The notes: generated from the letters alone by a model not told the origin. Counted from the stretch's first letter, positions 24,130-59,397 are shown. The stretch is DNA of 64,000 nt from a virus (IMGVR_UViG_3300025112_000005:1-64000); one strand, 5' to 3'. Numbers and translations: made by a program.

Positions 24130-27100
24130 ATGTTGACGATGGCGAGCGTGGCGCGGTTGGCGAAGGCGAAGGGCAAGGACTACCGCGAGCGCGAAGCGGC
24201 GGGCCAAACGACCCTCTTCGGCGGCGGCGCCAGTGACGCGGACAGCGGTCACAGGCCCCGACGGCGTCGTCCCCGGGGGCCGGGCGCTGAGGCGGAACGC
24301 AATCACGCACTTCGCTCGCAGCATCACCGGAAGAGGGCGGAGGATCACCAGCATCGACGCACGCCGGGGGCGCCGGGGGCGCAGGAGCACGCACAGGCGA
24401 TCATGGCGCACAACAACGCGGCGGACGCACACAACGCGGCGCGGACGGCGCACGCGGAGGGCCGACCCGGGGCAGAAGCAGCCGCGGAGCGAGCGAACGA
24501 CCGGACACGAGACGCGGAAGCCGCATCTATCAGGGCGAGGAGCAAGGAAACCCCTCGCCACACGGGGCGCCACGGTGAGGAGGGGGGCCGAGGTAGTGGC
24601 CGGATCCGCGACGCGCTGGACCCCGGCGGGCGAGCGCCTGCCCCGCGTGATCCGGTGTCTGACCACCAGATCGGACGCAGGGCCGCGCACCACGCAGACG
24701 CAGCAGCCGCACACCGCGCCGTGGCAGCAGGACGCCCGTCCGACGCGAAGCAACACCGCGCCGCGGCAGACGCGCACGAGAACGCGTCTGTGCTACATGC
24801 GGCAGGGCACGCCGACGCAGGCCGGGCGAGCGTTGAAGCGCTGGCGGCCAGCGATGCCGTTGCGGGTGGACGCGGTGCCACGAGCAGCGGCGATGATGCC
24901 CGGGACCGGCGCGAGGGGGAGGCCCGCGGGCGCGTCGCCCAGGCGAAGGCGAAGCTGGACGCGGCGAAGAAGAAGGCCGGCGACAAGCCCCCGAGCGGCT
25001 ACTACCCCGCGAAGCGCTCCAAGAAGGGCGGCTTTACGGACGGCAAGGGCAACTACTGGTACCCCGGCAAGGGCGCGAAGCCCGCGGGGGCTCACGACGG
25101 CGAGCACGGCAAGGACGCGGCGCTGGCGCACCACGACGAGCGCCGGGCGCACCACGACGAGATGGCGCTGGAGCACAAGAAGGCGGCGGCTGATCCCTAC
25201 CGGACGATGGAGAGCCGGGGGAAGCACGCGGACGCAGAGCGCAAGCACCACCACGCAGCGGTACACCACGGCGCGGCGCACGCAGACATCCGCGCGGGGC
25301 GCGTGGAGCCGAGCGACCCCAAGAGACACGACACCCTGGCGGGGACCACATCCGAGTGGGCCGACGACCACGACCGGGCGCAGTGGAACGACGAAGATGC
25401 GCACCACCACGACGAAGCGGCGCGGCACCGGGCGAAGGCGGCCGAGCTGGGCGGCCACGGGCCGGAGACCCGGGCGCATCTGAACGCGGCGGACGCGCAC
25501 GAAGAGGCGCACCGGCACGGGCGGGGCAGCATCGACACCCGAGCCCGCGACGTGTTCAGCGAGCGGGCCAACAAGGCGGGGGAGAAGGCCACGGCCGCGA
25601 GCAAGGCGGCGCGCAAGAAGGCCACGAGCAAGCCCCATACGCGTCACTCGTTCAATGAGGCGTTGAAGGGGCGAGACCGCAAGGGGCGCGCGGAGCTGTG
25701 GCACGAAGTGCTGGAGGGCGCGGGACTGACGGGGAGCGACCAGCCCAACTGGAACAGCCTCGGCAGCATCGAGACGCTACGTGCGACCCTCGCCCGGCGC
25801 GAGGGCTGGGAGGAGGGCCGCAAGAAGATGGCGGCGCTGGACGCGGAGCTGAAGAAGCGCGGGATGTTGCCCCTCACCGACGACGAGATGATGGACCGCG
25901 AAGCAGCGCGCATGGACGCGGAGGGCGTGCCCCACCCGCGTGACGCCCTGGACGCGCACACGGCGTACAAGAAGACCAAGGGTGCACTGGGTACGGATCT
26001 GGTCGAGTACCTGGAGATGAACGCATACAAGGTGCCCCCCGGGGCGCACGACCTGACGTCGTTGACGGACAAGGAACTGCGCAAGCTCAAGGGGCAGGTG
26101 TGGAACGCGCTGAACGCCCCTGGACACGGCCATGCGTCGGTTCGCACACGGCGGCAGGCGCGGAAGGCGGCGAGCGCCCTGAGCGCGGAGGCGGATCGGC
26201 GTCTCAACGAGGGACACAAGGACAAGGCGGATCGGCGCAAGACCGGCGGCTTCGGCTCCCAGGCCGAGGTAGACGCGGCGTTTGAGGGCGGCGACCCGAT
26301 GGGGCTGGACCCCAACGCGGCGGCCAGTGCGTCCATGAAGCAGAAGCCCGGCGCGGTGAAGCAGGCTGCGGCGGCGAGCGTCAGCGCGCGGACGGAGAAG
26401 GACACGCCGAAGCCGGGGAGCCACGCTGCATTGGTCGCGGCGGGGAAGGCGGCTCTGGAGCGTGCGGACCACCCGCAACACAAGGTGCCGAAGGCCCTGC
26501 TGAACCGGGGCGGGCGCCTGGGACGTGAGCGGGGCATCAAGGAGGCGGCGGAGAGCTGGTACAAGCACCCGGGCCACAGCGGGATGCCGGCGCGGCACGA
26601 GGTGATCAAGCAGGTGCAGAAGGACCGGCAGCGGTGGCACGAGGACGGCGGTGGCAAGGGGTCGAGTAAGGTCGCGGACTTGGCGCCGAGCTACCTGCAC
26701 GAGTACGCGAAGCACGCGGCGTCTCAGTACGGGGACACGCCGCAGGCGGCCCCCGACCCCCAGGAACACGGGCTGTCGGGTGGGGAGGCGGCGGATCTGG
26801 TCAGCCGCTTCACGAAGCTCATGGGCACGCCCGAGGAGCCCACGAGCTGGTCCGGCGACCACGGAGGTGCGCAGATGCCCGCTGAGCACGGGCACGGCGA
26901 GGACTTCCACAGGCGGCTGATGACCGAGGCGCGCACAAACGCGGCGTCGTCCCGTTCGGGTATCCACAACAGCGCCCACCTGCACCGCATCGTCCAGCAG
27001 GCGGACCAGCACGTGGCCGACTTCGCGGAGAGCAAGAGCAGTCACCGTAGCGGCGGTGCTGTGGCGACGTACCACCCCGACGAAGAGCAGCACTGGGGCA

Positions 27101-27225
27101 CGGCGATGGCTGCGCTCCAGAACGCGCACGGCGATACGCACCGCTTCGAGGCGAAGCGCCGCAAGACGGACAACCAGATGGTGATTCGGGCTCACCGGAA
27201 GTCGGGGAAGAGCCCAAAAGCGTAG
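24130..27225 (+). CDS. Giant His/Ala-rich modular protein 1 (putative virion internal protein)
   Basis: GGAGG RBS; N-terminal LAKA, YREREAAGQTTLFG; PPSGYYPAKRSKKGGFTDGKGNYWYPG tag; HxxAADAH repeats. Confidence 0.8.
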   Translation: MLTMASVARLAKAKGKDYREREAAGQTTLFGGGASDADSGHRPRRRRPRGPGAEAERNHALRSQHHRKRAEDHQHRRTPGAPGAQEHAQAIMAHNNAADAHNAARTAHAEGRPGAEAAAERANDRTRDAEAASIRARSKETPRHTGRHGEEGGRGSGRIRDALDPGGRAPAPRDPVSDHQIGRRAAHHADAAAAHRAVAAGRPSDAKQHRAAADAHENASVLHAAGHADAGRASVEALAASDAVAGGRGATSSGDDARDRREGEARGRVAQAKAKLDAAKKKAGDKPPSGYYPAKRSKKGGFTDGKGNYWYPGKGAKPAGAHDGEHGKDAALAHHDERRAHHDEMALEHKKAAADPYRTMESRGKHADAERKHHHAAVHHGAAHADIRAGRVEPSDPKRHDTLAGTTSEWADDHDRAQWNDEDAHHHDEAARHRAKAAELGGHGPETRAHLNAADAHEEAHRHGRGSIDTRARDVFSERANKAGEKATAASKAARKKATSKPHTRHSFNEALKGRDRKGRAELWHEVLEGAGLTGSDQPNWNSLGSIETLRATLARREGWEEGRKKMAALDAELKKRGMLPLTDDEMMDREAARMDAEGVPHPRDALDAHTAYKKTKGALGTDLVEYLEMNAYKVPPGAHDLTSLTDKELRKLKGQVWNALNAPGHGHASVRTRRQARKAASALSAEADRRLNEGHKDKADRRKTGGFGSQAEVDAAFEGGDPMGLDPNAAASASMKQKPGAVKQAAAASVSARTEKDTPKPGSHAALVAAGKAALERADHPQHKVPKALLNRGGRLGRERGIKEAAESWYKHPGHSGMPARHEVIKQVQKDRQRWHEDGGGKGSSKVADLAPSYLHEYAKHAASQYGDTPQAAPDPQEHGLSGGEAADLVSRFTKLMGTPEEPTSWSGDHGGAQMPAEHGHGEDFHRRLMTEARTNAASSRSGIHNSAHLHRIVQQADQHVADFAESKSSHRSGGAVATYHPDEEQHWGTAMAALQNAHGDTHRFEAKRRKTDNQMVIRAHRKSGKSPKA

Positions 27226-27610
27226 CCCCGGCGAGCACCGGGGACCACGTCGAGACCGTGCAGGCGGCATTCAAGGCGCACCGGGTCAACCGTTCGCAGG
27301 CGTCGCGTCTCCTCGCGTTCTTGCACGGAGAGGCCAGCATCGGCGAGGGCGAAGGGGACGCGACTGTGCGCGCGTTGAAAAGCCGCGGGCTGATTGAGAA
27401 CACGGCATGGAGACAGGAGCCGGGGGAGTACGGCTACCAGCACGCACAGCTCACGGCCAAGGGGCGCGAGCTGGCGCGCGCGTTGGCCCACGCAGGCGTT
27501 TCGGATGCGGGCGCGGCTGAGCTGTTGAGCGCGCGAGTAGTGCAGGGACGCCCCGCACCTCCGACACGCCGCTGGCGCGAGGGGCTGGAGAAAGACAGAA
27601 AGCGGAAGCC

Positions 27611-27838
27611 ATGAGCGACGACGGTGAGCACAAGACGGTCAGCATGAAACTGGCGATGTCCGTCCTGACCACGCTACTGGCGGTCATTGGCGGGCTGACC
27701 ACGGTCACGCTGGACAAGGCCACCCAGGCGGCCGAGGCCCGCGCGGAGAACGCCGTGATGACCACCCAGGTGAAGGCGTGCGGTGACGTAATGTCCCGCT
27801 CGGAGAAGCTGCTGGCGGCATTGGAGGCGAGCCGATGA
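27611..27838 (+). CDS. Small single-TM membrane protein (lysis accessory?)
   Basis: Hydrophobic LAMSVLTTLLAVIGGL followed by a coiled coil. Confidence 0.4.
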   Translation: MSDDGEHKTVSMKLAMSVLTTLLAVIGGLTTVTLDKATQAAEARAENAVMTTQVKACGDVMSRSEKLLAALEASR

Positions 27839-28323: not shown

Positions 28324-28510
28324 ATGTCTACATGCTCGTTTGACCATGTAGACATTTCCCGCCACCCTCGTGGGGCTGCGTGCTCGTGCGCCCCGGCGCC
28401 CGTGGTTCGATTCCACGGGCTGGCTCCTCCGCTTAGTTCGGAGCTGCCCCCGTCCCGGGGTACCGGAGGCGGGGAACGCGGGCACGCAGCGTCAACACCT
28501 TGACCATGTA
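28324..28510 (+). promoter_or_regulatory. Putative late promoter/operator region upstream of the terminase unit
   Basis: TTGACCATGTA at 28340-28350 and 28500-28510; 11-bp inverted repeat atgtctacatg/catgtagacat at 28324-28355. Confidence 0.55.
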
Positions 28511-28616
28511 GCGGCAACCGGGCAGGATCAGGCCCTGCCGGCTTTATCCGCTCGCGCGAGCCCGCGTCAATCAACGGACGCTGGTAGGGTGGGCGGCTCA
28601 ACCACCGGAGGCTTAT

Positions 28617-28895
28617 ATGCCCGTCCGACACCTGAAGATCCGCAACTCCAAGCTCTACGGCACCCGCGTGTTCAACGTGGATGCCGAAGGTCGTGTGACC
28701 GCGGAGGACGGGAGCAACCCGACCCCCGTGGAGGCGGCGCGGTTCGCCACGATGGCCAATTACCACGTGACCCCCGACGACGCGGATGCGGCGGTAGAGC
28801 CGCACGCGACCAAGGCGCCCGAGCCCGAGCCCCCGAAGGCGAAGGCGAAAGACGCCCAGGCGCGTCCCCCGCGGCGGCGCAAGCGCAGCAAGTGA
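28617..28895 (+). CDS. Small hypothetical (virion-associated?) protein
   Basis: GGAGG RBS; stop overlaps the terminase start. Confidence 0.65.
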   Translation: MPVRHLKIRNSKLYGTRVFNVDAEGRVTAEDGSNPTPVEAARFATMANYHVTPDDADAAVEPHATKAPEPEPPKAKAKDAQARPPRRRKRSK

Positions 28896-30613
28896 GCATC
28901 GCGGCTCAGCTCCTCGCGACCCCCGAGGGGCGCCGAGGGCTGGCCGCGGGGTCCCCCGCTTTCTTCGACACGCTTTATTGCGGGATGCGGCAGGCGGCGC
29001 ACCGACGGCGCTGGCTGGACGTGGTCGAAGAGACGATGGTCACCGCGCGGCGGACCCGTCGGAAGGGGCGGCTGCTGCTGTTGGCCCCGCGTGACCACGG
29101 CAAGACCGAGCTGGCGATCAGCCTTGCGCTGCGGCAGGTGTGTTTGAACCGCGACGTGCGGATCTTGTGGATCAGCGAAGCGGCGGGCGTGGCAGAGAAG
29201 CGCGTGCGGCGCCTACGGTCGTTGCTTACGTCGGACAAGGTCGCGGAGGATTGGTGCAGCGCCCCGGAGGCGGGGCTGGGACCTTTCCGAGCGAACGACG
29301 AGAAATGGACAAACACCCAGCTCTACGTCACCCGCAAGCTGGCCAGCGTGGACCCCACGATCGAGGCGGTCGGCAGCGGCGGCGCAATCACGGGCGGTCA
29401 CTTTGATCTGATTCTGTGCGACGACCTGGAAGACGACCGGACGACGTACACGGAGGGCCAGCGCGAGAAGACGCGCACGTGGTGGGCGGGCACCGTGCTT
29501 CCAATGCTCAACCGCGGCGGAACGCTGGCGGTGATCGGGACGCGCAAGCACGCCGACGACCTATATGCCCGGCTGCGGAAGTCGCCATTGTGGCGCGTGA
29601 TCGAGGACCCCGCGATCCTGAAGTGGCCCGACGCGCACGAGGTTGAGACGGAGCCCGACCCGAAGACCGGGCAGGAGCTTGTCACCCGGATCCGCGTCGA
29701 GGGCGATTCTGAAGTGCTGTGGCCCGAGGAGCGCCCCATCGAGTACCTGCTGGGCGAGCGCTACGGCATGGGCTCGCTGTTCTTCGCCCGCGAGTTTCAG
29801 CACCAAGTGCAGGACGACAGCGCGGCGGCGTTCAAGTGGGAGTGGTTGGAGCTGGCGAAGAAGCGCGGGCGCGGGCTGCACCTGGGCCAGCTCCCGCCCG
29901 TGGAGGACCTTCTGCTGGTGCAGGGCTGGGACCTTGCGCTGGTGACCGACGAGGATCGAGCGCGCGCCCAGGACAGCGACTACGTGGTGGGCATCGGCTG
30001 GGGCAAGGACCCGAAGACGGGTGACCGCTACCTCGTGAGCGGGCTACGCAAGCGCGGCATGTCCCCCGGGCGCATCCGGGGCGAGGTCATGGGCGAATTC
30101 GAGGCGCTGGGCGGGCTGCGCAAGGTGCGTGCGGTTGGCGTCGAGCGGAACGCGTTCGGGGAGCTGCACTACATGGGGCTCAAGCGGACGACGGACCTAC
30201 CGATCAAGCCCCACATGACGACGGGGCCGAAGAAGGCCGACCCGTGGGAGGGCGTGCCCGCGCTGGCCACGCTCTTCGAGAACGGAAAGGTGGTGCTGCC
30301 CTACCACCCCGACGACCCCGAGGGGCGGGCGTTCGTGGACGTGCTGTGCGCGGAGCTGTGGGGGCTGGGGCGCGAGGCGCACGACGACACCGTCATGGCG
30401 CTGTGGATCGCGGAGTGCGTGCTGCGCGGCGCCGGCTTCCAATACCGCGTGGCGACGGGCGACGCGATCCACGAGATGGCGGGGACCGTGTACGACGAGC
30501 CCCCGATCAAGGCAGACGACAGGCGGTCCCAAGAGCTGTGGGACGGCATCGCGGGGATGTTCCCCGGAGCGGATTTCGGAGACGATGATGACGACGACGA
30601 AGCTGATCCGTAA
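28892..30613 (+). CDS. terL: Terminase large subunit
   Basis: APRDHGKT Walker A, ITGGHFDLILCDD Walker B, GTRKH, GWDLA RNase H-like nuclease, VERNAF, HDDTVMA; GTG start 28892. Confidence 0.95.
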   Translation: MSIAAQLLATPEGRRGLAAGSPAFFDTLYCGMRQAAHRRRWLDVVEETMVTARRTRRKGRLLLLAPRDHGKTELAISLALRQVCLNRDVRILWISEAAGVAEKRVRRLRSLLTSDKVAEDWCSAPEAGLGPFRANDEKWTNTQLYVTRKLASVDPTIEAVGSGGAITGGHFDLILCDDLEDDRTTYTEGQREKTRTWWAGTVLPMLNRGGTLAVIGTRKHADDLYARLRKSPLWRVIEDPAILKWPDAHEVETEPDPKTGQELVTRIRVEGDSEVLWPEERPIEYLLGERYGMGSLFFAREFQHQVQDDSAAAFKWEWLELAKKRGRGLHLGQLPPVEDLLLVQGWDLALVTDEDRARAQDSDYVVGIGWGKDPKTGDRYLVSGLRKRGMSPGRIRGEVMGEFEALGGLRKVRAVGVERNAFGELHYMGLKRTTDLPIKPHMTTGPKKADPWEGVPALATLFENGKVVLPYHPDDPEGRAFVDVLCAELWGLGREAHDDTVMALWIAECVLRGAGFQYRVATGDAIHEMAGTVYDEPPIKADDRRSQELWDGIAGMFPGADFGDDDDDDEADP

Positions 30614-30827: not shown

Positions 30828-30848
30828 CCGTGTAGGATGGGCGGCGGA

Positions 30849-33800
30849 ATGCTGACCTATGCCGAGCTGATCAAGGCGCACGCGGCGACCTACCATGGCA
30901 AGGGGCGCCGTACGGGTGTGCCGGGGCACTACAGCTACGACTACGACGAGCCCGCGCGGCGGGGCAGTGGGCGCGGCCAGCGCAAGCGGGAGGCGCTGGA
31001 GGCGGCGGGCCAGCTCTCGTTGCTGGGTCCAATGCAGCCAAGCGCGGCGCCCCCCGCCGCCCGTGAGGAGCCGAAGCCCGAGCGCCCCCAGCTCGCGCAC
31101 GACCACCCCGCGGTGAGTGAGCCCAGCGCGCGCATCACCCGGTACGACCTGAAGCAAGCGGCTGGCGTGCGCGCCGAGCTGGCGAAGATCGCGGACGAGC
31201 TGGAGAAGCTGCCCAACGGCGCAGACTGGCGACATGGCCGAGCGCGCGAGCTGGTTCGCGAAGTGGGCCGCGCCAGCACAAACGTCTTGCGGTGGGCGAT
31301 GAAGCTGGAGCTGTGGGACAAACCCGACCACGAGGGCGGGCTGGACGCATTGATGAGCGGGCTCAACCGCAGCAGCGTGCTGGAGGGCGGCCCCCAGGCG
31401 ACCGCGCGGCGCCTTCGGCGCATTCACAGAAAGCTGGCCGCGTCGGCGAAGCGTGGGACTGAGGACGTGTCCCACGAGGAGCGGCTGGAGACGCAGCAGG
31501 TGGGCGCCGTCCAGCTACAGGTCAGCAGGCACGAGGCAACGCCGGAGATGGCCCGTTCGCTCGCTCACGATCTGCGCGAAGCGCAGGGGCGCATGAAGCG
31601 CGCGGGGTTCCACGAGGCGTACAAAGGCGGGCGGGTCACCCTCAAGAAGCACGCGCGGGAGCACGAGGCGCGATACATGCGAAACGGCCGGTCAGCGGAC
31701 ACGGTCGAGTGGAACACCAATTCGCTGGGTACGCTGGGGGAGCACGAGGAGACAGTGGCGTCCATCGTCCACGAATTCGGACACCGGCACTACTACCGCA
31801 ACCTGCCCAGCCGCGCCGTTGAAGGGTGGGACGCCGAGTCTGCGCGCATGGTCAACGTGGCGCGCGAGGACGTGGACAAGCTGGCCGACTACACGGCGCG
31901 CTTCGCCAGCGACGCGCAGCGCGACGGGGCCACTTACAGCGAGAGGCTGGGGACGGAAAGCGCGTTCTCCGAACGGGTGCGTGCCCACATCACCAATGAC
32001 CCTGACCTGGACCCGGAGACCCGCGCGCTTTACACGGCGATGGTGGGGGTCGTGGGGGAAGACCTGGAAAGCAGGCTGACGACCACCTGGGCGCACCCCG
32101 GCGACCGCCAGCACGGGCTTGACGATGTGCGGAAAGAGATGCGCGAGAAGCTGGTGGGTGCGCATGTGCCCGTTCACTGGACAACGCAGTACGGGAGCAC
32201 CAAGCCAGAGGAGGCATACGCGGAGGCGTTCAAGCTCTACGTGATGCGAGGCCCCCGAGCCCTGGGTGAGCGCACCCGAAAGTTCTTCGAGCACATTAGC
32301 AGCCTGCGCAAGGCGCAAGGCGCGTTCTCAGCACCGCTGGACACCGTGATGGAGCACCGGAAACAGCTCCGCGCGGGGCGGTTGGTAGACGCGATGGATA
32401 AGGCGCTGGGGGTTTTCCGATGCAGGCGTGGCACGCCGAGGGGCTGGCGCTGCTTTGCGGATCTGGTGAAGGCATACACTGCGTATCGCGGGAAGGGCAC
32501 GCGCCACGGCTCCCCGGGGAGCTACACCTACACCTACGACGATGAGCCCAAGGCGAAGGCGAAGAAGAAGGGGCGCCACACGGTGCTCCCCACGTGGGAC
32601 GCCCCCGAGCGCATCGACCTGACTCTGGTGGGGTGCAGCAAGTCGAAGGTGGACCACGACGACCCCGTGGCCGTGCGGGACCTGTACCGCAAAGACCTGT
32701 GGAACAAGCGGCGGGGGTTCGCGGAGGCGCGCTCGCGCCACGGCACCCCCTGGGCGGTGGTCAGCGCCGGCTTGGGCATTGTGGACCCCGACACCCAGGC
32801 GACGCGCTACGACACCCAGGTAAAGGATTTGAAGGGCGACGCGCGGAGCGAGTGGGTGCGCAACACGCGCGAGAGCCTGCGGCAGAAGCTACCCCGCGGC
32901 GGGCGCCTGGAAGTGATCGCCGGGCGTGACTACGTGGCGATGCTGCGGGAGGCGGTCGAGGGGCTGGGCATCGAGCTGGTTAACCCGCTCAAGAGCGTGG
33001 GCACAGGCGACGGGAAGCACTGGCTGGCGGCGCAGACGGATCTGCTGAACAACAAGCCCGCGCCCCGGGAGCCTGAGCAGCTGCGCCCCGCGCAGCAGCA
33101 GCTCTCCCTGTTCGGCCCCGACGACTGGCCCAAGAAGCGCGCGGCGCCCACGCTCTCCGCGTACGCCGAACTGCGCCCCCTGCGAAAGAAGCACGCGGCG
33201 GCAGAGGGTGCGTGGAAGAGGGTGCTGGGGGCAGCGGAGCGGCTGCTGGTGGCGACGGACTACGCGGAGCCCCACACGGTCGAGACGACCCGAGGGACCT
33301 ACAAGTACAAGGGGGGCACCCATCGACCCCCCCAGGCGAGCGGGGGGCGGCTGGCGCCCGAGGTGACCCACCAGTTTGCAGGCGTGCTCCCGCAGGGGCG
33401 GCTTACGCCGGAGAAGCTACATGCGGGGAGGCTGGCGGCGGCGGAGACGATGGCGCGGACGATGAGCCTGGACGAGACCCCCGCGGGTGTTCCGCGCTGG
33501 TGGAAGGCCGAGCGGAAGAGGTTCGTGGACGCTGTGGCGGAGCTGCGCGGTGCGCGTGACACGTACACGTCGATCACGCGACTGTTCCCGGGGAAGCGCT
33601 TCGAGACCCCGAAGGTAGGCCGCGCCCTGGAGAAGATGGCCCTGGAACGCCGAGGGCTGGAGCGCGAGGCGGACGAACTAGACATCCCCCTGCGGCGGTA
33701 CTTCGCCAGCGGGTCCAACAACGCGGGGGAGATTCGCGGGTTTGCTGCGCTGGGCATGAACGTGGGCGTGGCGGTGGACCAGATCAACAGCGCGTCCCTG

Positions 33801-35646: not shown

Positions 35647-35649
35647 CGG

Positions 35650-36051
35650 GTGGCCACCCTACGCGGCGAAGTAACCGGATCCGCGAACGCCAACAACGCG
35701 GCGCGGCTGGCCACGATCTGGGGGGACGGGGTTCTTGTCTACGACACGGACGATGACCGGCTCTACGTCGGCGACGGGGAGACCGCAGGCGGTAATCCGC
35801 TCGCTGAGGGCGGGACTACGCCCATCCCCGGGCACCCGCATTTGTTTCAAGGAGATGGGGCCACGACCGTTTTCACGCTACCGTGGACCCCGTTGACGGC
35901 TTCGGCCCGTGTGTGCCGAAACGGCTTGCAGATCGAGCGAAGCCCGACGCCTGGGGATAAGGACGAATTCCTGATCGCCGGTAACAAAATCACTTTCGGG
36001 GCTCCCCCCGGTACGCTGGACCGTCTTTCGGTCTCGGCGTGGACCCGCTAG
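35650..36051 (+). CDS. Fibre/decoration-associated protein
   Basis: GVLVYDTDDDRLYVGDGETAGG (Mtd-N/hyaluronidase-N-like motif) and GDGATTVFTLP...RNGL domain. Confidence 0.6.
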   Translation: MATLRGEVTGSANANNAARLATIWGDGVLVYDTDDDRLYVGDGETAGGNPLAEGGTTPIPGHPHLFQGDGATTVFTLPWTPLTASARVCRNGLQIERSPTPGDKDEFLIAGNKITFGAPPGTLDRLSVSAWTR

Positions 36052-36071
36052 AGCGAGAGGGAAAGCAGCAC

Positions 36072-38147: not shown

Positions 38148-38207
38148 TCCGGGTCACCATCACCACGACCGGGGCTCGCCCCCCGGCACCAGCCTGGGGT
38201 CGAGTAA

Positions 38208-50555: not shown

Positions 50556-50556
50556 C

Positions 50557-50760
50557 ATGGACACAGATCTGACCCCCCAAGAGGCTACGGAGCTGCTTCG
50601 GATGCTCTGCCCCGTCGGCGGGATGAACCCCGCGGAGCCGGAGCCCGTGGAGCGCGCGCGGTTGTGCCGGCGCCTCTACGACCACATCAAGGCGGACAAC
50701 GGGCTGGTGCCCAACTGGCTCAAGCACGACGTGTCCAACATCGTCGGCCCCGCTGCGTGA
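50557..50760 (+). CDS. Small hypothetical protein
   Basis: GGAGG RBS; stop overlaps the next start. Confidence 0.55.
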   Translation: MDTDLTPQEATELLRMLCPVGGMNPAEPEPVERARLCRRLYDHIKADNGLVPNWLKHDVSNIVGPAA

Positions 50761-53700
50761 GCAGCGGACCCTTCATCGGCCCCCGGGGCGGGAAGTGGGC
50801 AGACGCCCAGCACACCGTCCCGTGGCATAGCTCCGAGGGGCGCGACCGGAGGCAGACCAGCCTGCTGGGCGCGGACGACGAGGGCACCAAGCGAAAGAAG
50901 CCCCTGCAACGACTGCGTGAGGGGGAGGTGATGGCGTTCCTCCAATCGCACGGGCACCGAGCGGGGAGCCATGCGGAACCGGGCGGTCACGGAGAGAGCG
51001 GGGTCCACACGCGCCAGCACTCCCGGCAGCAGGTCGAGGTGCGGCACGTCGAGTCACACCACCGGGACCACACGGGGCGCATCCAGCTCCCGGGGGGGGA
51101 GCACGAGGCTCTGAAGAAGCACGAGGCCCGCCAGCACGCCAAGGTGGTGGAGAAGCTGAAGGCTGCGGGGTATCACGTGCGCACGGACGCCGTGGGGCGG
51201 ACGCTGGTCGGTCGGCGAGGGGGAGCGCCCGAGCACGGCCCCCAGCGTGTGCAGGCGGCGAGGCCGAAGAAGAAGCTGGAGCTGGTGGTGGACAACACGC
51301 AGCCGGGGCTGTTCAAGTCGATGGTGGTCCGAGCGCTGTGCAAGGCGCAGGGAGGCCCTTTCATCGGCCCCCGCGGCGGCAAGTGGGCGAACGCCCAGCA
51401 CACGGTCCCGTGGAAGCCCAGCGGCGGGGTGTTGCGGGTGGACGCGGCCCTTGTCCGTGAGACTGTGGACGGGTGGTTTTCTGACTTGCGAGCGATGCCG
51501 GGACAATCCCGGTCGTCCATGATCGAGTACACCCAGGCGGACGGGGCAAAGCGTCGCGCGGTGGCACAGATCGTTGTAGAGGCGAGCACGGGCGATCCGC
51601 GAGGCGTGAAGGGCATCCACCATTACCGGACCACGGGGCAGGGGGGGATGCACAAGGTCGTTGTGCACATCAGTATGCGAAAGCTGGCGGGGAAGATTGA
51701 TACAGCCAAGGAGGCGGTGCGTTCCGTTCTTGCGCACGAGCTGACACACGCGGCCGACGTAGGGCTCCAGAAACGCGCAGAGCGACGCGCACGTGCTCAT
51801 TTCTCAGGGGACAGTAAGGGCGCCGAGCGTCTGAGGGCGAGGGACCATAGCGACGGGTCGGCCAACTACTTCAACCAACCGCATGAAGTCACAGCGAAGA
51901 TGCAGCAGATTCAGCGGGAGTTGTTGGACCCGGGTGTGGGGGGCGCGCTGGTCGAGGATGCAAAAAACCACGCGGACGACCCAGACAACCCGCCGCCGAT
52001 GACGCCCGCGCAACTGCTTGAGTGGGAGAGCCCCTCCTGGGGTGAGGTGAAAGAGCACTATACCCCCGAGAACAAGAAGCGTGTGCTGCGTATGGTGGCG
52101 AAAACCCATGCAGCGCTTTTGTCGGGAGAACTGGAGCCTGTGAAGAAGGCGGGGCCGTTCTCCTACATGGTGCTGGACGCGCTGGCGAAGGCCGCGAAGG
52201 GCGAGAGGCGGCAGGGCGCGAAGTACATTCGGCGCGTGCCCAAGCCCGGGGGCGGCTACCGCTACTACTACGCGGAAAGCAGCGCGGCGCGGTCGGCGAC
52301 CGAGGGCGAGGACGTGCGGCTGGGCGACAAGCTGACCCGGGTCCACAAGGTCCATGCGCACGGTATTGAGATCGAAGACGAGAAGGGCAAGCGCACAGTC
52401 TCGCACGACGAGTGGTCCCACATGCTGCACGAGCATTACGGCTCGCGCTTCTACGAGTGGGCAGAGAAGCGCGCGCGGCAGTACGCGGGCGCGGTGCTCA
52501 AGCACGTTCCCGCGGAGCTGTTCAACGAGCTGAAGGGCGAGACCGACGCCGAGCGCATGGCGGACCTGAAAACCCGGCTGCCCGACGTGCACGCGAAGCT
52601 GGAGAAGGCGTTTTCGCGCGCGGGCGTCAGTCCCGAGGATGCGCACCGCGCTATCTCGCACGTGCTGGAGCGCAAGGGGTGGACGGGCGGCGCCCGGCAA
52701 ACGCTCCTGGGGTCGATGCTCAACCGCGAGACGGCGTGGACCGTTCGGCACTACCGGAGGCTGAGCAAGGCCGCGGAGAACTTGGCGAAGGCCGACGGCG
52801 CGGAGCTGGTCGACCAGAAGCATGTTGCGGCGGCCATCGCGTTGCCGCGCACGGCGACGGCGATGGACCGCGTGGTCAACCGCGCGACGGCGGAGATGCA
52901 CCACATTCGCGCGGTGCTGAAGCTCCAGCTAACCCCGGGGGAGAAGAAGGAGGAGCAGGGCGCGCTGGCGCTGGACACGAAGATGTCCGCTGAGGCGCTG
53001 GCAAAAGTGCGCGCGGCGCACATGATCGGCCAGCTCTCTGTGATGGCTCAAGCGTTCCCGGGGCTGGCGTCGGATCCGGCCATGCAGCAGCTTCGTGTGC
53101 TGCTGGGCAGCCTTCAGTCCGTGGCTCCGCGCACGGAGCCGACGGCGAAGGGCGCGCAGACCACGGTGTACGTCGCGGGCGAATTCGGTTCCCCCGAGCC
53201 CATGACCGCGGAGTACGCGCTGGTCGACGCGGCCGAACTGACTGCGAGCCACGACCCCGTGACGTTCGCGCAGAACGAGGCGCACGACATCGGCAACGAG
53301 CGCGCGTATCACCGCGACAAGGCCGAGCGGGCGAAGGTGATCAAGAACGCCGAAGACCTGAAGCCGGATCTGGTGATCAACACCAACCCGGACGCGACCA
53401 ACGGCGCCCCCATCGTGGACGAAAACGGGGTGGTGTTGGGGGGCAACTCGCGCACCATGTCCATGCAGCGCGTTTACCGGATGGGAGGCGCCCAGGCGGC
53501 GGACCTGAAGGGGTACCTGAAGGGACAGGCGCGACAGTTCGGGTTCAAGCCCGGCGACGTGGAGGCGATGGCCCAGCCGATCCTCGTGCGGAAGGTCCAG
53601 CCCCACGACGACGACCACAAGCGGCTTCTGGTGCGCCAGCTCAACGAGACGTTCATGCAGGCGATGGATCCGCGCACGATGGCGGTCGCGCAGGCGGCGC

Positions 53701-55166
53701 GGCTGGACGACAAGGCGCTGGAGGCGCTGGCCACCGACATGGGGCCGGACAAGACGCTGGCGGCGTTCCTGGGGGCGAAGGCATCTGACGGGTTCGTGAA
53801 CCAGCTCAAGCGCGCGGGCGTGATCAGCGCCCAGAACCAGAACGCGTACATTCGCAAAAACGGGCGGCTCAACGAGAACGGCCGGCAGCTCGTGGAGAAC
53901 GTGCTGGTGGGGAAGGTCGTCGGCGACGCGGACCTGCTGGTGGACCTGCCCCAGCCGCTTGTTGGGGCGCTCGCGCGTGCCGTGCCGTACATGGTGCAGG
54001 CGGAAGGGGCAGGGGCGGCGTACAACATCCGTAGTGAGCTGAAGCACGCGCTGGAGGCGTACACCGACATCAAGAACCGGCCTGAGTTCGGCATCCCGAA
54101 GAGCAAGAAGGAAGCAGCGGCGGTGCTGGAGTCGTGGAAGCGACTCGGCGGAGGGCTCTTTGAGGGTCACGAGGTGTTCAAGAACCCGCGCAGCATGGCG
54201 ATCCTGAACACCCTGTTCACGCAAGCCGGCCCGCGGCAGATGGCCGCCGTGTTCCGCAAGTACGCGGAGGCGGCGGGGCATCAAGAGGCGGGTGGCGGCG
54301 AGGGGCTGGGCTTCTACGAGAAGAAGACCCCCGACGACGTGTTCGGAGAAGCGTTCGGCCGGGCGGAGGACGAAGAGGCGGCGCAGGAGAAGGCCAAGGC
54401 CGCGCGTGAGAAGCACGTGGAGGAGACCAAAGCAGAGGCCAAGAAGAAGGCCAAGGCGAAGGCGGAGCGCGAGGCCCAGAAGGAAGGGCCGCGAAAACTG
54501 TCTGACCTGCCCCACGTGAGAGACGACCCGTGGGACGATGGGACGACGGTTGTTTTTCGACAAAGCCCGTTCCCCAAAGGGGACAAGCCCGCTATTTCAA
54601 GCAAGCTGATCAGCTCCGCGAAGGTCGAAAGCGTGAAGCTGGCGGACCTTCAGGGCTCACAGACCGAGATCACAGAGGTCGGGGTAGAGAAGCACGCGAA
54701 GGCCCCCGACGCGACCACACCGACAAGCGAGCTACCCGTGGTTATTCGTACAGCGGACGGGAAGCACATTATTCAGGACGGGCACCACCGGCTTGCGGCG
54801 GCTGTTTTGCGGGGAGATAAAGACGCCCGTGTGCGCGTGGCGGTCGAGCCCGGTGCCAAAGAAGCGCCCGCGCCGAAGGTTGAGCCCGAGGCGCCCGCGG
54901 TCGATCACGCGGCCAAGGCCGAGGAGCACGACATCGCGGCGGAGAACATGCCCGGCAAGTACCCCGGGCACGCGTGGACGAGCACGAAGGAAGCGGCCCA
55001 GGACGCGCACACCGCGGCGGAGAAGGCGCACCAGAAGGCGCACGCGAGCCCGACCGCGGAGAACAAAGCAGCAGCAGCGGCGGCGACCAAGAAGGCCGAG
55101 GAAGCGGACGCGGCTTCGGAGAAGGAAGAGGCGGACGCGGCAGCGTCGCAGGGCGGGTTGTTCTGA
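50757..55166 (+). CDS. Giant modular protein 6: zincin + DdrB-like ParB + second ParB/Srx domain
   Basis: AHELTH...YFNQPHE; YALVDA.EL.ASHD...ER.Y...NGAPIVD..GVVLGGNSRTM; LPVV...IQDGHHR; GTG start 50757; C-terminal QGGLF. Confidence 0.85.
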   Translation: MSSGPFIGPRGGKWADAQHTVPWHSSEGRDRRQTSLLGADDEGTKRKKPLQRLREGEVMAFLQSHGHRAGSHAEPGGHGESGVHTRQHSRQQVEVRHVESHHRDHTGRIQLPGGEHEALKKHEARQHAKVVEKLKAAGYHVRTDAVGRTLVGRRGGAPEHGPQRVQAARPKKKLELVVDNTQPGLFKSMVVRALCKAQGGPFIGPRGGKWANAQHTVPWKPSGGVLRVDAALVRETVDGWFSDLRAMPGQSRSSMIEYTQADGAKRRAVAQIVVEASTGDPRGVKGIHHYRTTGQGGMHKVVVHISMRKLAGKIDTAKEAVRSVLAHELTHAADVGLQKRAERRARAHFSGDSKGAERLRARDHSDGSANYFNQPHEVTAKMQQIQRELLDPGVGGALVEDAKNHADDPDNPPPMTPAQLLEWESPSWGEVKEHYTPENKKRVLRMVAKTHAALLSGELEPVKKAGPFSYMVLDALAKAAKGERRQGAKYIRRVPKPGGGYRYYYAESSAARSATEGEDVRLGDKLTRVHKVHAHGIEIEDEKGKRTVSHDEWSHMLHEHYGSRFYEWAEKRARQYAGAVLKHVPAELFNELKGETDAERMADLKTRLPDVHAKLEKAFSRAGVSPEDAHRAISHVLERKGWTGGARQTLLGSMLNRETAWTVRHYRRLSKAAENLAKADGAELVDQKHVAAAIALPRTATAMDRVVNRATAEMHHIRAVLKLQLTPGEKKEEQGALALDTKMSAEALAKVRAAHMIGQLSVMAQAFPGLASDPAMQQLRVLLGSLQSVAPRTEPTAKGAQTTVYVAGEFGSPEPMTAEYALVDAAELTASHDPVTFAQNEAHDIGNERAYHRDKAERAKVIKNAEDLKPDLVINTNPDATNGAPIVDENGVVLGGNSRTMSMQRVYRMGGAQAADLKGYLKGQARQFGFKPGDVEAMAQPILVRKVQPHDDDHKRLLVRQLNETFMQAMDPRTMAVAQAARLDDKALEALATDMGPDKTLAAFLGAKASDGFVNQLKRAGVISAQNQNAYIRKNGRLNENGRQLVENVLVGKVVGDADLLVDLPQPLVGALARAVPYMVQAEGAGAAYNIRSELKHALEAYTDIKNRPEFGIPKSKKEAAAVLESWKRLGGGLFEGHEVFKNPRSMAILNTLFTQAGPRQMAAVFRKYAEAAGHQEAGGGEGLGFYEKKTPDDVFGEAFGRAEDEEAAQEKAKAAREKHVEETKAEAKKKAKAKAEREAQKEGPRKLSDLPHVRDDPWDDGTTVVFRQSPFPKGDKPAISSKLISSAKVESVKLADLQGSQTEITEVGVEKHAKAPDATTPTSELPVVIRTADGKHIIQDGHHRLAAAVLRGDKDARVRVAVEPGAKEAPAPKVEPEAPAVDHAAKAEEHDIAAENMPGKYPGHAWTSTKEAAQDAHTAAEKAHQKAHASPTAENKAAAAAATKKAEEADAASEKEEADAAASQGGLF

Positions 55167-55501
55167 TGCGGGTGGGACTGAGTGAGAGCTACCCCGGGGA
55201 GTTGGAGGAGCTGGGACCGCTGGGGGTCATGCAGAAGGCCGAGGCGGGGCTCCATGCAGCGCTGCGCGACCTGGGGCACCCCGAAGCCGCTGCTGCGCTG
55301 GCGGGGCGTCTGGATGCACTTCTCGACGCTGAGCGGGCGCTGACCGACGTGTACGAGGCGGGGGAGCTGCGAAAGGCGCTCCCACCGCGCGGGGGCGAGC
55401 TGGACGTGGTGCAGATGCTCGCCGACCGGATGGGGGGCGCGTACGACGCGATGGCCGCGCGCTTGGAGAAGCGGCTACGGGAAGCGGTCGACCGTGGCTG
55501 A
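55166..55501 (+). CDS. Small head-module protein
   Basis: ATG overlaps the upstream stop; contains MQKA and LRKA. Confidence 0.6.
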   Translation: MRVGLSESYPGELEELGPLGVMQKAEAGLHAALRDLGHPEAAAALAGRLDALLDAERALTDVYEAGELRKALPPRGGELDVVQMLADRMGGAYDAMAARLEKRLREAVDRG

Positions 55502-56534
55502 TGACACGTTGTCCCGCGTCGTGGCGGACCTGATCCGCGAGCATCACGAGGCGTTTCTGGTGGCGCTGCTGGGGCGGGACGCAAGCACCGTCCCCCCCGA
55601 GCGCATCGAGGAGCTGCTGGCGTCCGGCGCGCTCGACCCGCACGCCATCGGCCGCGTGCACGTGGCTGTGGGGGACGAGCACTTGAACCCCTACGAGTAC
55701 ATGCGGCTGGTCTCGCGGGCGTACGCCAAGCTGGGCGACGACGACGCGGTGGCGGCGCGGACGTGGGGTTTCTCCGATTGGGAGCCACACGTGATCCGCG
55801 AGCTGGAGAGCGCGCGGGCGGAAGACGTTCGCCCCGCCGAGGCGCGCGCGCACGTGACCGCGGCGCGTCCCGAGCCCCCCGACCTGGAAGCCGGCGCGGT
55901 TGAGCCCAAGGCGCCTGGGTGGATGACGCCCCAGGAGCGCGCCAGCCACCGTGAGGCGCTGCTCCGTGCCGGGTCGTATGCGCGTGGGCTGGGCAACGTC
56001 TACGCTGCGGACTTGAGCACGAAGGCGGAGACCTGGACGGGCGAGCAGATCGAGCAGGAAGCGAACGCACCGCAGCGCGCGCAGATGCAGCAGGTGATTC
56101 GGGAGCACGTGGCCGAGGCCATCGCGACCCACCGCGACCAGGAGAAGCTGGCCCGGGATCTGGCTGAAGCGACGGGGTTCTATTCGCACAACTGGCGGCG
56201 GATCGCGTCCACTGAGCTGCAAGGCGCCCACAACCTGGGCATGGTGGAGGCGGCGATCGACGCGCACGGCGAGGCGGGCCGCGTGGCACGCATCACCGAG
56301 TCGGGCGCGTGTGAGCACTGTCTGCGGTTGTTTCGAGACGCCGAGGGCAAGCCGCGAGTGTTCGAGGTTCGCGAACTATTGGAGAACGGGACCAACGTGG
56401 GGCGCAAGGCAGCTGCGTGGCTCCCGACGGCGTGGCCGGTGCATCCAAACTGCCGCTGTGACACGCGGATTGTACCGCCTGGGCGAACAGTCACCGCTGA
56501 TGGTAGGATCCGACGCGAGGAGACCGCGGCATGA
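55494..56534 (+). CDS. Minor head protein (MuF/SPP1 gp7 family)
   Basis: WRRIASTE, ACEHC, PVHPNCRC. Confidence 0.88.
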   Translation: MADDTLSRVVADLIREHHEAFLVALLGRDASTVPPERIEELLASGALDPHAIGRVHVAVGDEHLNPYEYMRLVSRAYAKLGDDDAVAARTWGFSDWEPHVIRELESARAEDVRPAEARAHVTAARPEPPDLEAGAVEPKAPGWMTPQERASHREALLRAGSYARGLGNVYAADLSTKAETWTGEQIEQEANAPQRAQMQQVIREHVAEAIATHRDQEKLARDLAEATGFYSHNWRRIASTELQGAHNLGMVEAAIDAHGEAGRVARITESGACEHCLRLFRDAEGKPRVFEVRELLENGTNVGRKAAAWLPTAWPVHPNCRCDTRIVPPGRTVTADGRIRREETAA

Positions 56535-57214
56535 GCTACGACACCCCCGACGACCTGGGCGACTTCCGCTTCTGGTCCCCCCTGCTGGTCAAGGCCGACA
56601 ACCCCAACGGCGGGTTTGGTGAGGTGGCGCTGGGGAAGATCGGCGGCGTGATCAGCTCCGACACCGTAGACTTTCAGGGCGAGACGCTGGACCAAGACGG
56701 CGTGGATTGGTCGTACTTCGAGGCTCACGGGCTCTTGAACTACAACCACACGGCGCTGATCCTGGGCGAGCCGACCGCGGTGATTCGCAAGGGCGGCCGA
56801 ACGCTGATGGAAGGCGTGCTGTACCTGCACCAGCCCAAGGCGCGCGAGGTCTACCAGACCGCCGTTGCGATGCGCAAAAGCGGTGCCCGGCGCAGCTACG
56901 GCTTCAGCGTCGAGGGCAAGGTGTTGGAGCGCGAGCAGGGGAACCCCACGAACGTCCGCCGCGCCCGGGTGATGAACGTGAGCGTGTGCGAGCACCCCGT
57001 GAATCCCGACGCGCGTATGACCTTGCGCAAGGCGCTGAGTGTGGGCTACCAGACCGCAGCAGGCATGGACGGCGGTTTCTCCCCGCTCGTGCCTCAGAGC
57101 TTGGAGGGCAGCGTGGCGCTGTCCACGTTCAAGCGGGAGCTGTTGGGTCAGTTTCCCCGCCTGACTGATGATGAATGTGACGCTGTGGCACGGCGAGTGC
57201 TTCACTTGCCTTGA
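56531..57214 (+). CDS. Prohead protease (HK97/U9 fold)
   Basis: GVISSDTVDFQGE, NYNH, GFSVEG, VSVCEHPVNP. Confidence 0.88.
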   Translation: MSYDTPDDLGDFRFWSPLLVKADNPNGGFGEVALGKIGGVISSDTVDFQGETLDQDGVDWSYFEAHGLLNYNHTALILGEPTAVIRKGGRTLMEGVLYLHQPKAREVYQTAVAMRKSGARRSYGFSVEGKVLEREQGNPTNVRRARVMNVSVCEHPVNPDARMTLRKALSVGYQTAAGMDGGFSPLVPQSLEGSVALSTFKRELLGQFPRLTDDECDAVARRVLHLP

Positions 57215-57276
57215 CCGCGGATCGCGACCCGGTGAGAATACCGACGTGGGGTGACCCCCCCGAGGAGACGACGAAG

Positions 57277-57909
57277 ATGCAGACGCGAGACCAGATCATC
57301 GCGGCGCTCCGTACCGCGGGGGCCGACGAAGAGACAATCAGCAAGGCGCTGGCCGAGCTGGAGCCGACCACCCCCGAGAACGACGCGCTGGGCAAGAGCC
57401 TGGGCGACCTGCGTGCCGCGTTCGACCGCGAGCACGCCGGACGCGACGAGGATCTGGCCAAGAGCCTGGACGAAGCCGCCGATCTGGTGGACGCCGTTAC
57501 GAAGGGCTCCGACCTGATCCTGGCCGAATTCCGCGCGCAGAACGACGCGCTGGCCAAAGGGATGGTGGCGCTCATCAACACGTCCCGCGACGAGCGCGCC
57601 GAACTGCGTTCGCTGATCGAAGAGGTCCGCGAGCTTCGGCAGGATCGCGAGGAGCAGGACGAGCGCATCGCCAAGGCGCTCTCCGTCCCCCAGGAGCCCC
57701 GTGGGCTCTCCGGGGCCACGCCCGTCCCCACGCCGTCCGAGCGCGTCCTTGGAGGCGCCCCGGAGGCGGGCGACCTGATCAACAAGGCGCTGACCGAGCT
57801 TCAGAGCGCCGACGAGCCCCGCAAGCGGGAGCTTTCGACGGCGATTTCGCGCCTTAACTCCGGCTTCGCTGCGCACGCGGTGGCCCAGGAGTTTGGGTTG
57901 AGCGCCTGA
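57277..57909 (+). CDS. Capsid scaffolding protein
   Basis: Acidic coiled coil between protease and capsid genes; seven [LIV]xK[ASG] sites. Confidence 0.8.
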   Translation: MQTRDQIIAALRTAGADEETISKALAELEPTTPENDALGKSLGDLRAAFDREHAGRDEDLAKSLDEAADLVDAVTKGSDLILAEFRAQNDALAKGMVALINTSRDERAELRSLIEEVRELRQDREEQDERIAKALSVPQEPRGLSGATPVPTPSERVLGGAPEAGDLINKALTELQSADEPRKRELSTAISRLNSGFAAHAVAQEFGLSA

Positions 57910-57954
57910 CACGCGTCGGGTCGCCCCGCGCTGACTGAATAAGGAGATTCCAGA

Positions 57955-59397
57955 GTGCAGTTCCCGAATATGAACCAGGACATGCCCGTCGCGGATCTGG
58001 TCAAGCTCAACAACGCGCTGCGTAAGGCGGCGAGTGTGGGCTACCAAACCGCAGCGGGGACCACGGGCGCCGACGCAGGGACGTTCTCCCCGCTCGTGCC
58101 GCAGAGCATCGAATCAGTGCTGGCTTCGGCCACGTACACGATGCAACACCTTTCGCTGTGGCGTGACATCCCTAAGCGGGACGTGACGCAGACCCTCCAC
58201 GAGTACGCGGTGGTCAACGAACACGGCGCGGACTTGGATCCGTTCTTCGCGGAAGGTTCTGTCCCGGCGACGAACCGTTCTGAATACGAGCGGAAGAGCC
58301 TCAAGATCAAGTACCTTGCCGAGCGGCGCGAGATCACCGACGTGGCCAGCATGGTGGGCCTGATCGGGGTCAACAAGAACGCGCTGGCCGAGGAGACCGA
58401 GAAGGGCACCATCCGGCTGCTCCAGCGCACTGAGCGCGCGTTGTTCCACGCGGACAGCGACATCAACCCGCTGGCCTTCGACGGCATCTTCAAGCAGATC
58501 GAAGACGGCGCGTCACAGAACGTCACCGACATGGACGGCGCCGCGCCGACCCCCGACCTGCTGGGCGAGATGCTGGGCGAGCTGTACGCCGCACCCAACT
58601 ACGGGATCGCGGACTGCATCTACGTCGAGCCGCGCATCCACCAAGAGCTGATCCGGCAAGCGCAGGCGCACGGGCGTCACGACCAGCTCAGCATTCAGGA
58701 CAGCACCAAGCTGACCTGGGGCGCCAAGGAGCTGTGCATCATGTCCCCGTACGGGCCGGTGCCGATCCGCAACGCGCCGTTCCTGTACAACAAGTGGCCC
58801 GTCCCGATGAACGTGGACAAGCAGGCGATCCGTGTCGCGGGCATCGGCGACGTGATCCCCGACACCCCGCAACTGGACGCAGGTCCGGCATCCCCCCCAG
58901 ACGGCGCGTCGAAGTTCACCGCGGCCGACGCGGGCGACTACGAGTATTACATCGAGGCAGTCGGGGCGAAGGGCGTAAGTGCCGTCTTCTTCGCTGGCGC
59001 CGCCGCGGTGGCCGTGGTCGCAGGCGACAAGGTGACGTTCACCATCAAGGGCGACGGACTCACCAACGCCCCCGCCTACTACCGGATCTTTCGATCGGCC
59101 AAGGACGGGGGCTACAAGACCGCCCAGCTCCTCACCGAGCTGGCGTACACCGCGGGTATGGATACGGCGTTCGAGGACTACAACGCGGAGAAGCCCGGCA
59201 CGTCCAAGATCCTCGCGGTCAAGCACGATCCGGGGATCATCGAGTGGGTGAAGCTCCTCGACTTCCTGCGGCGCCCGCTGGCCGAGGTGGAGACCACCAA
59301 GCCCTTCCTCCTGATGCTGTTCGGTGCGCCCATCATCAAGGTTCCGACCAAGACCTGGGTGCTCAAGAACTGCGGCGTCAACACGGCGGGCCTGTAA
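57955..59397 (+). CDS. Major capsid protein (Herelleviridae-like)
   Basis: AAGGAG RBS; ALRKA-SVGY..., PQSIE, LWRDIPK, HEY, FFAEG, ERALFHADS, AFDG; Ig-like insertion. Confidence 0.92.
   Translation: MQFPNMNQDMPVADLVKLNNALRKAASVGYQTAAGTTGADAGTFSPLVPQSIESVLASATYTMQHLSLWRDIPKRDVTQTLHEYAVVNEHGADLDPFFAEGSVPATNRSEYERKSLKIKYLAERREITDVASMVGLIGVNKNALAEETEKGTIRLLQRTERALFHADSDINPLAFDGIFKQIEDGASQNVTDMDGAAPTPDLLGEMLGELYAAPNYGIADCIYVEPRIHQELIRQAQAHGRHDQLSIQDSTKLTWGAKELCIMSPYGPVPIRNAPFLYNKWPVPMNVDKQAIRVAGIGDVIPDTPQLDAGPASPPDGASKFTAADAGDYEYYIEAVGAKGVSAVFFAGAAAVAVVAGDKVTFTIKGDGLTNAPAYYRIFRSAKDGGYKTAQLLTELAYTAGMDTAFEDYNAEKPGTSKILAVKHDPGIIEWVKLLDFLRRPLAEVETTKPFLLMLFGAPIIKVPTKTWVLKNCGVNTAGL

Follow-up and report, generated by a model that had tools for sequence, protein, structure and literature searches.

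The window, by which we mean the whole 64,000-nucleotide (nt) stretch IMGVR_UViG_3300025112_000005:1-64000, corresponds to bases 1-64000 of an 80,205-bp phage genome with a GC content of ~0.69, and contains six giant open reading frames (ORFs), here called giants A to F, that are interleaved with the genes of a phage head. An earlier note on this DNA had placed six such ORFs around terL, portal and MuF, and this arrangement is borne out. The ORFs encode 824-1469 amino acids (aa), occupy ~22 kb and show a high GC content at third codon positions (GC3), and all of them share the + strand with the genes for the terminase large subunit (TerL), portal, MuF, protease, scaffold and major capsid protein (MCP). 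Short signals recur within the giants, namely peptides of four classes (tags 1-4), sites of the form [LIV]xK[ASG] and QLxLF-type motifs, and they lead us to propose that the giants are probably cargo polyproteins of the virion that are cut by the prohead protease. The giants are laid out as follows.

24130..27225, + strand: giant A, 1031 aa, with LAKA at 24157-24168, QTTLF at 24205-24219 and tag1 at ~24988-25068

30837..34799, + strand: giant B, 1320 aa, with an alternative start at 30849; in the first half LIKA plus tag4 at 30867-30950, QLSLL at 31011-31025, HEFGH at 31770-31784 and LRKA at 32304-32315; in the second half LVKA plus tag4 at 32463-32549, DUF6884 at 32622-33029, QLSLF at 33099-33113 and then a C-terminal domain without a family match

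38208..42383, + strand: giant C, 1391 aa, with QLGLF at 38250-38264, tag1 at ~38343-38420, HEWGH at 41598-41612 and LPD1 at 42003-42290

44119..46593, + strand: giant D, 824 aa, with LAKA at 44284-44295, tag2 at 44302-44355 heading a module of ~135 aa (to ~44688), and a PAPS-reductase/PP-loop domain at ~44998-46095

46590..50555, + strand: giant E, 1321 aa, with QLGLF at 46596-46610, tag1 at ~46683-46760, a degenerate tag3 at 48246-48305 and SNF2/Helicase_C at ~48357-50282

50757..55166, + strand: giant F, 1469 aa, with an N-terminal tag3 at 50766-50831, LFKS at 51309-51320, LCKA at 51336-51347, a second tag3 at 51348-51422, HELTH at 51735-51749, LAKA at 52182-52193, tag2 at 52218-52271 heading its module, ddrB-ParB at 53202-53597 and DGHHR at 54777

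That the giants carry unrelated catalytic domains, as previously suggested, is confirmed by Pfam and PHROGs for giants B to F (DUF6884, LPD1, PAPS reductase, SNF2 and ddrB-ParB); the two databases gave no family for giant A, which is rich in His and charged residues. The C-terminal part of the giant E helicase matches the DarB-like phrog_10089 (1e-18, over aa 1145-1236 only), and no methylase domain was found. HExxH motifs occur in giants B, C and F, and a credible zincin motif is absent from A, D and E. PDB sequence searches with the C-terminal part of B, with F and with C returned nothing useful. The domain content supports the assignment of the giants to the phage-type polyvalent proteins, which join at least two unrelated conflict-type domains with signature families in a head-gene context.

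An all-against-all comparison of the giants, combined with motif scans, recovers the near-identical tags that the earlier note had described in otherwise unrelated giants and sorts them into four classes. Tag1 (GY.PA.RS.KGGWTDG.G.YWY) is found in giants A, C and E, and tag2 (HKYIRRVPKPGGGYRY) in D and F. Two copies of tag3 (GPFIGPRGGKWA..HT.PW) are present in F, with a degenerate copy in E ahead of the SNF2 core, and two copies of tag4 (Y.GKG.R.G.PG.Y.Y.YD.EP) in B. The tags are basic, Gly-rich and aromatic in composition. Tag2 exceeds a peptide, for D and F align over ~135 aa at 36% identity beginning at the tag, and AlphaFold 2 (AF2) models this module as a low-confidence hairpin for the tag peptide, followed by a confident small beta-barrel (SH3/Tudor-like) and three helices. 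Fold searches with the module gave no Foldseek hit at E <= 0.001, and VIA-align scores (Z <= 5.9) within noise. Modelled alone, tag3 has no secondary structure (predicted local distance difference test score, pLDDT, of 63) and in this prediction behaves like a short linear motif. Different tag classes can combine within one protein, since a 241-aa database protein (P0024) has tag1 four residues after its Met, a His-rich stretch like that of giant A, and LSKG plus tag3 at its end. Even with the E-value limit relaxed to 10, Pfam assigned none of the ten tag regions to a family, a literature search with the tag strings gave nothing relevant, and nucleotide comparison of the tag copies was uninformative at a GC3 near 0.9.

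The tags are regularly preceded by a candidate cleavage site. In the window, [LIV]xK[ASG] lies 0-12 residues upstream of every copy of tag2, tag3 and tag4 that is not at a natural N-terminus, and giant F has two such sites in succession, LFKS and LCKA. In IMG/VR, 155 copies of tag3 were found at 72 distinct loci that span GC contents of 0.32-0.71, with up to five copies per ORF and a largest tag-bearing ORF of 2,664 aa. A site of the form h-x-K-[AGS] is found at most 13 residues upstream in 115 of 123 distinct tag3 contexts, against a background of 7%, so that across the wider family the placement of sites before tags greatly exceeds chance. The P3 residue is most often Leu (80 of 117), P2 is unconstrained, A, G or S occupies P1', and 4-9 residues separate the Lys from the tag. 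A second K[SAG] follows 3-16 residues further upstream in 68 of 119 contexts (26% background). A tag3 profile search of 1.84 billion proteins retrieved 803 representatives at E <= 0.001 (530 at E <= 1e-10), and in the best 147 of the 803 the site is present at 288 of 314 tags, while N-terminal copies have leaders of 3-25 residues ending in K[AGS]. Giants A, B and D, and 41 N-terminal cases elsewhere, likewise have leaders of 3-25 aa with h-x-K-[AGS] at their end, and in tag2 proteins L-x-K-[GAS] stands 3-4 residues ahead of HKYIRR, its L and K being invariant.

The same motif marks the substrates expected of the head protease, which are encoded after giant F (an arrow denotes a putative cut).

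56531..57214, + strand: prohead protease, S78-like, with LRKA at 57023-57034

57211..57909, + strand: scaffold-like protein with seven [LIV]xK[ASG] sites

57955..59397, + strand: MCP, with a putative maturation site LRK↓A at 58018-58029

58018-58150 and 57023-57150: the segment shared by the MCP N-arm and the protease C-terminus

The N-terminus of the MCP (..LRK↓A ASVGYQTAAG..) and the C-terminus of the protease (..LRK↓A LSVGYQTAAG..) have a 45-aa segment in common that begins right after LRKA. L-x-K-[AS] precedes this shared segment in 14 related metagenomic loci as well, and comparable sites precede it in two further phages: in the MCP they read ALK↓S.. (Listeria phage P100) and LQK↓S.. (Pseudomonas phage Touem01), and in the protease FMK↓S.. 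(P100) and MNK↓S.. (Touem01). These similarities suggest that the protease may be anchored in the prohead by mimicry of the MCP N-arm and then free itself. The scaffold has seven [LIV]xK[ASG] sites where 0.46 are expected (15-fold) and the protease three where 0.42 are expected; the Touem01 scaffold has seven sites too. Given the border sites of MCP and protease and the enrichment in scaffold and protease, h-x-K↓[AS] is very probably the specificity of this protease family, whose Peptidase_S78 match in the window is weak. Loessner and Scherer reportedly found in 1995, by N-terminal sequencing of the A511 capsid protein, a mature end after this Lys. A comparison for covariation between the P1 residues of MCP sites and tag sites showed Lys at both in all lineages. 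We also observe that some cargo leaders (window 44119-44284, loci L092 and L102), for example M-F-R-Y-S-x-F-L-D-T-L-x-K-A, are like the end of the MCP propeptide (..L-N-S-A-L-R-K-S) of the same phages.

The tags also track this type of head module. The 72 tag3 loci were gathered through the tag alone and head genes were then sought by phmmer, and at least one homologue of the window's TerL, portal, MuF, protease or MCP was found in 72 of 72, with strand and gene order preserved; many of them have MuF fused into a tagged giant. For tag2, the head module is present in 29 of 36 loci. The co-occurrence of tags with this capsid and protease type, which the earlier note had proposed as a check, is thus largely upheld. 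The tag3 loci represent at least 31 portal lineages at 70% identity, and the window's portal shares 32-53% identity with theirs, against near-invariance of the tag. In a sample of 37 tag3 proteins the payloads include InPase (15 proteins), Zeta toxin, LPD1, SAM lyase, SNF2, type IB topoisomerase, ART-PolyVal, ddrB-ParB and GNAT, which is the repertoire of polyvalent proteins; among tag3 proteins P0036-P0182 the topoisomerase IB is of the eukaryotic type, and a Hint/intein with a homing endonuclease and an ATLF-like metalloprotease domain are present as well. The tag2 module is fused to PAPS reductase, InPase, LPD1, ddrB-ParB or a Sno-type helicase. Among 185,579 species genomes tag3 is found at 10 loci only, all of them in metagenome-assembled genomes (MAGs) and 7 of the 10 near head genes, and neither tag2 nor tag3 occurs among 50,697 cultured-phage records. 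Tag1 is confined to close relatives. In loci L108-L112, five contigs with GC contents of 0.39-0.42, a variant tag2 (L.K[TA]..G...GHKYIRR..G.YKY.Y) heads several adjacent ORFs, and no homologue of this head module is found within the flanks, one of the contigs being 163 kb long; these loci may be a different context for tag2.

The prediction that payloads are swappable holds, with tag2 and tag3 fused to more than 20 Pfam families and a cassette insertion or deletion placed at the punctuation marks. In the relative with 69% portal identity (L001-L003) the orthologues of the giants keep their tags; no stretch of giant C is better conserved than its tag, and in E the tags rank among the most conserved stretches. 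D and F both retain the site ahead of tag2, and F also retains LEKA and its second LAKA, but most other sites are lost in these orthologues. The orthologue of F (L001:17811-21038) is without exactly one unit, corresponding to window ~51309-52190 and comprising tag3 and the HELTH module, and the ends of this indel are a QxGLF-K mark and the next LAKA. One database protein joins PAPS reductase, DUF6884 and InPase, which in the window are split between B and D.

QLxLF-type motifs form a further recurrent element. They lie in the N-terminal regions of giants A, B, C and E, within a common '..REA.GQLxLFG' context, and also internally in B, and take the forms QLGLF (twice), QLSLF, QLSLL and QTTLF. 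In the tagged ORFs of viral loci QL.LF is found 20 times against 1.3 expected, and in the top tag3 proteins Q[LM].[LM]F is found 34 times against 1.4, an enrichment in tagged proteins of 15- to 24-fold above shuffle expectation. The usual form is [EG]-Q-L-[GSD]-L-F-[GKD] in Pro/Lys-rich linkers, often directly after a K[AS] site or directly before K[GA]-tag3. We take the motif to be a match to the consensus by which bacterial proteins bind the beta sliding clamp, for which Dalrymple et al. are said to have given the pentapeptide QL[SD]LF in 2001; QLGLF, QLSLF and QLDLF in disordered termini or linkers resemble it. The presence of the QxxL[FL] motif noted earlier stands, and its designation as a clamp motif derives from the consensus match. 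The motif may instead belong to the packaging or cleavage grammar. No phage-encoded clamp was seen among the genes scanned, and a family-A polymerase is present.

Taken together, these patterns make it somewhat better than even, at a probability of roughly 0.55, that the giants are cargo polyproteins of the virion and that the prohead protease cuts them at h-x-K↓[AGS]. As strings of anti-defence or takeover enzymes, they would be co-expressed with the head genes and taken up by the procapsid. Each unit would consist of a short, mostly polar/hydrophobic leader ending in h-x-K, then A, G or S, one of the interchangeable tags 1-4, and a payload domain. The prohead protease would cut the MCP propeptide, its own C-terminal anchor and the scaffold after the Lys of L-x-K↓[AS], and would cut the giants at the same motif into enzymes of 150-600 aa. 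The released enzymes would keep the tag at their new N-terminus and exit the head with the DNA, and fragments may be held at the beta sliding clamp of the host by the QLxLF motifs of their disordered linkers. The earlier interpretation of the giants as packaged, cleaved and injected polyproteins is in this way partly supported, on sequence grounds.

The part of that interpretation which we would change concerns the tags. Their near-invariance across phages whose portals share only ~36% identity suggests that an invariant partner, such as the packaged DNA or a universal host factor, is at least as likely as a capsid protein. A role of the tags as a capsid address is possible, but it is the weakest link of the packaging idea and is not favoured over the alternatives, since the tags lie downstream of the putative cut and would be retained, are far more conserved than the head proteins, and resemble nucleic-acid-binding peptides. 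A closer analogue of the T4 capsid targeting sequence than the tags would be the short leaders with their likeness to the final residues of the MCP propeptide. More tentatively, a cut site together with one of a few nearly invariant Gly/aromatic/basic handles, sometimes with QLxLF, could constitute a portable two-part code by which a large clade of HK97-fold phages loads any enzyme into the head as part of a polyprotein, the units released by the protease docking through the handle on an invariant partner (DNA or the host clamp). Such a code would amount to a general and engineerable grammar of cargo delivery. Cutting of such cargo would be missed by shotgun proteomics, because a cut after Lys looks tryptic.

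Several results weigh against cleavage of packaged polyproteins. The total number of [LIV]xK[ASG] sites in the giants is at chance (2-8 observed, 2.1-5.1 expected from shuffling), and we reject a general enrichment because the counts match shuffled sequences; tag1 in A, C and E has no preceding site. The earlier proposal that such sites punctuate the giants accordingly survives in their placement before tags 2, 3 and 4, and fails for overall enrichment and for tag1. Seven of the 36 tag2 loci have no head gene within their flanks, and common descent within one phage clade may account for part of the association between tags and head module. Moreover, K[AG] is kept behind leaders of only 3-4 residues (three in MKKG and MNKA), so that it is possibly part of the tag and not a scissile bond. 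This last point would fit giants that are packaged and injected, or act, as full-length multidomain proteins, with h-x-K-[AGS] and the tag forming one linear motif that binds portal/MuF, DNA or a host factor. Such a motif would agree with a tag that is more conserved than the head proteins and, in the case of tag3, predicted to be unstructured, and there is precedent in the full-length packaging of N4 vRNAP and the full-length transfer of ArdC/TraC1 (PMC5512222), to which P1 DarB is comparable. We nevertheless consider it unlikely that nothing is cut, given that the variable spacer of 4-9 residues, the free P2 beside fixed P3, P1 and P1', and the frequent double sites point to a protease site plus a separate motif, and that L-x-K-[AS] is also found at the MCP propeptide border and enriched in the scaffold.

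If the giants are cut, the protease might be their own, for three of them contain zincin motifs that could do the processing (HEFGH in B, HEWGH in C and HELTH in F), and self-processing by MPTase modules has been proposed by Iyer et al., for example in P1 DdrB (PMC5512222). Autoprocessing by embedded zincin-like metallopeptidase modules is improbable, however, for giants A, D and E share the same tags and sites and have no credible zincin, the site equals the head-protease motif of MCP, protease and scaffold, and the tags track the type of head module. We give equally little credence to the notion that the giants are not cargo at all and act inside the cell as late enzymes of DNA modification, replication or takeover, recruited to DNA or the replisome by the tags and QLxLF. 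The fit of QLxLF to the beta-clamp-binding consensus, payloads that act on DNA or nucleotides (PAPS-reductase-like, DUF6884, SNF2 and ParB) and the likeness of the basic, Gly-rich, aromatic tags to nucleic-acid-binding peptides would all suit such a role. It does not account for the TerL-portal-MuF-protease-MCP synteny that is kept across at least 31 portal lineages or for the fusion of MuF into tagged giants in many loci, and LPD1/ddrB-ParB proteins are predicted in virions and were found there for P1 and phi24B.

The remaining genes of the window fall on both strands. Genes on the minus strand extend to ~16.8 kb and include a family-A DNA polymerase, a PD-(D/E)XK nuclease and DUF932; plus-strand genes from 17 kb onward include a primase/DUF5906 helicase, then the giant-ORF/head region and then more plus-strand genes. 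The other genes of interest within the giant-ORF/head region are the following.

28370..30613, + strand: TerL, with a match to phrog_38 over aa 166-683

36039..38147, + strand: 702-aa protein encoded between giants B and C; its PHROG matches are to tail-fibre or virion-structural families

42380..44119, + strand: portal (Phage_portal)

55494..56534, + strand: MuF-like head protein, with a weak Pfam match; homologues in related loci score strongly

The window's portal (37-40%), protease (34-41%) and MCP (22-27%) are homologous to their counterparts in SPO1-like/Herelleviridae myophages at the identities given. Judged from these homologies, and from a protease C-terminus that repeats the MCP N-arm after a Lys site, the head module is SPO1/Herelleviridae-like. 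The N-terminal 165 aa of TerL (window 28370-28865) are Arg/Gly-rich and without terminase homology, and the true start may lie further downstream. The C-terminus of the portal (window 43870-44119) has a ~60-aa Asp/Glu/Gly tract followed by VKKA-LVEV, a site-like motif, and the 702-aa protein has tail-fibre-like repeats inside the head/cargo region. No DNA-level match to cultured-phage records was found. Related sequences come from metagenomes and MAGs, some of them labelled Myxococcales, and a myxobacterial host would be a guess.

If this reading of the giants is true, it would account for the loading of megadalton-scale anti-defence arsenals into capsids of ordinary size and for their release as working enzymes. 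It would also provide a sequence rule for recognising injected proteins in uncultured phages, with 803 clusters from one tag alone, and a short tag-plus-site cassette whose ability to load foreign proteins into phage heads can be tested. A handful of constructs would suffice for a direct test of the prediction, now seven years old, that polyvalent proteins undergo processing and packaging.

A literature search of partial coverage found no description of the site-plus-tag grammar or of the tags, and several known systems share parts of the arrangement. In phage T4, the internal proteins IPI-III and Alt have a short N-terminal leader of about 10 aa, the capsid targeting sequence, ending in the cut motif of the head protease, and are packed into the head and co-injected with the DNA. 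The T4 protease gp21, which removes this targeting sequence, cuts at L/I-x-E, whereas the phage described here has an S78-like protease with a candidate h-x-K↓[AGS] site, and its conserved Lys at P1 sets it apart from gp21-family proteases with an L/I-x-E site. T4 cargo proteins are moreover small and single; they lack a conserved tag behind the cut site, and the signal does not recur inside polyproteins. The phiKZ and SPN3US phages similarly cut many head-internal proteins at a simple consensus and remove their propeptides (PMC10052503, PMC7411985), but both are jumbo phages whose T4-like protease recognises [AGS]-x-E, and shared post-site tags are not reported there.

The Dar system of phage P1 (DarA, Hdf, DdrA, DdrB and DarB; PMC9024508, PMC12810830) is similar in that the P1 head takes up large anti-restriction proteins, among them a DarB-like helicase and a protein with a ddrB-type ParB domain, and in that DdrB is processed before or during packaging. 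It differs in its hierarchical loading through DarA and Hdf, its unrelated head module and the lack of a known tag grammar. The giants also compare with the polyvalent proteins, which Iyer, Burroughs, Anand, de Souza and Aravind described in 2017 in head modules and predicted to be packaged and injected, possibly after processing (PMC5512222); a giant of the LPD type has been reported in phi24B virions (bioRxiv 10.64898/2026.04.10.717836). These are likewise giant multidomain LPD1/ddrB-ParB/SNF2/zincin/InPase/ART proteins encoded beside portal-terminase genes, and in the 2017 paper leaders, linkers, short motifs and prohead-protease sites go unmentioned (PMC5512222). In the phage described here, by comparison, a site-plus-tag grammar that is tied to a single type of head module bounds the modules. 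Polyvalent proteins in head modules, T4 targeting peptides and the processed cargo of phiKZ/SPN3US were thus known already, and what appears to be new is the site-plus-tag grammar and the tags themselves.

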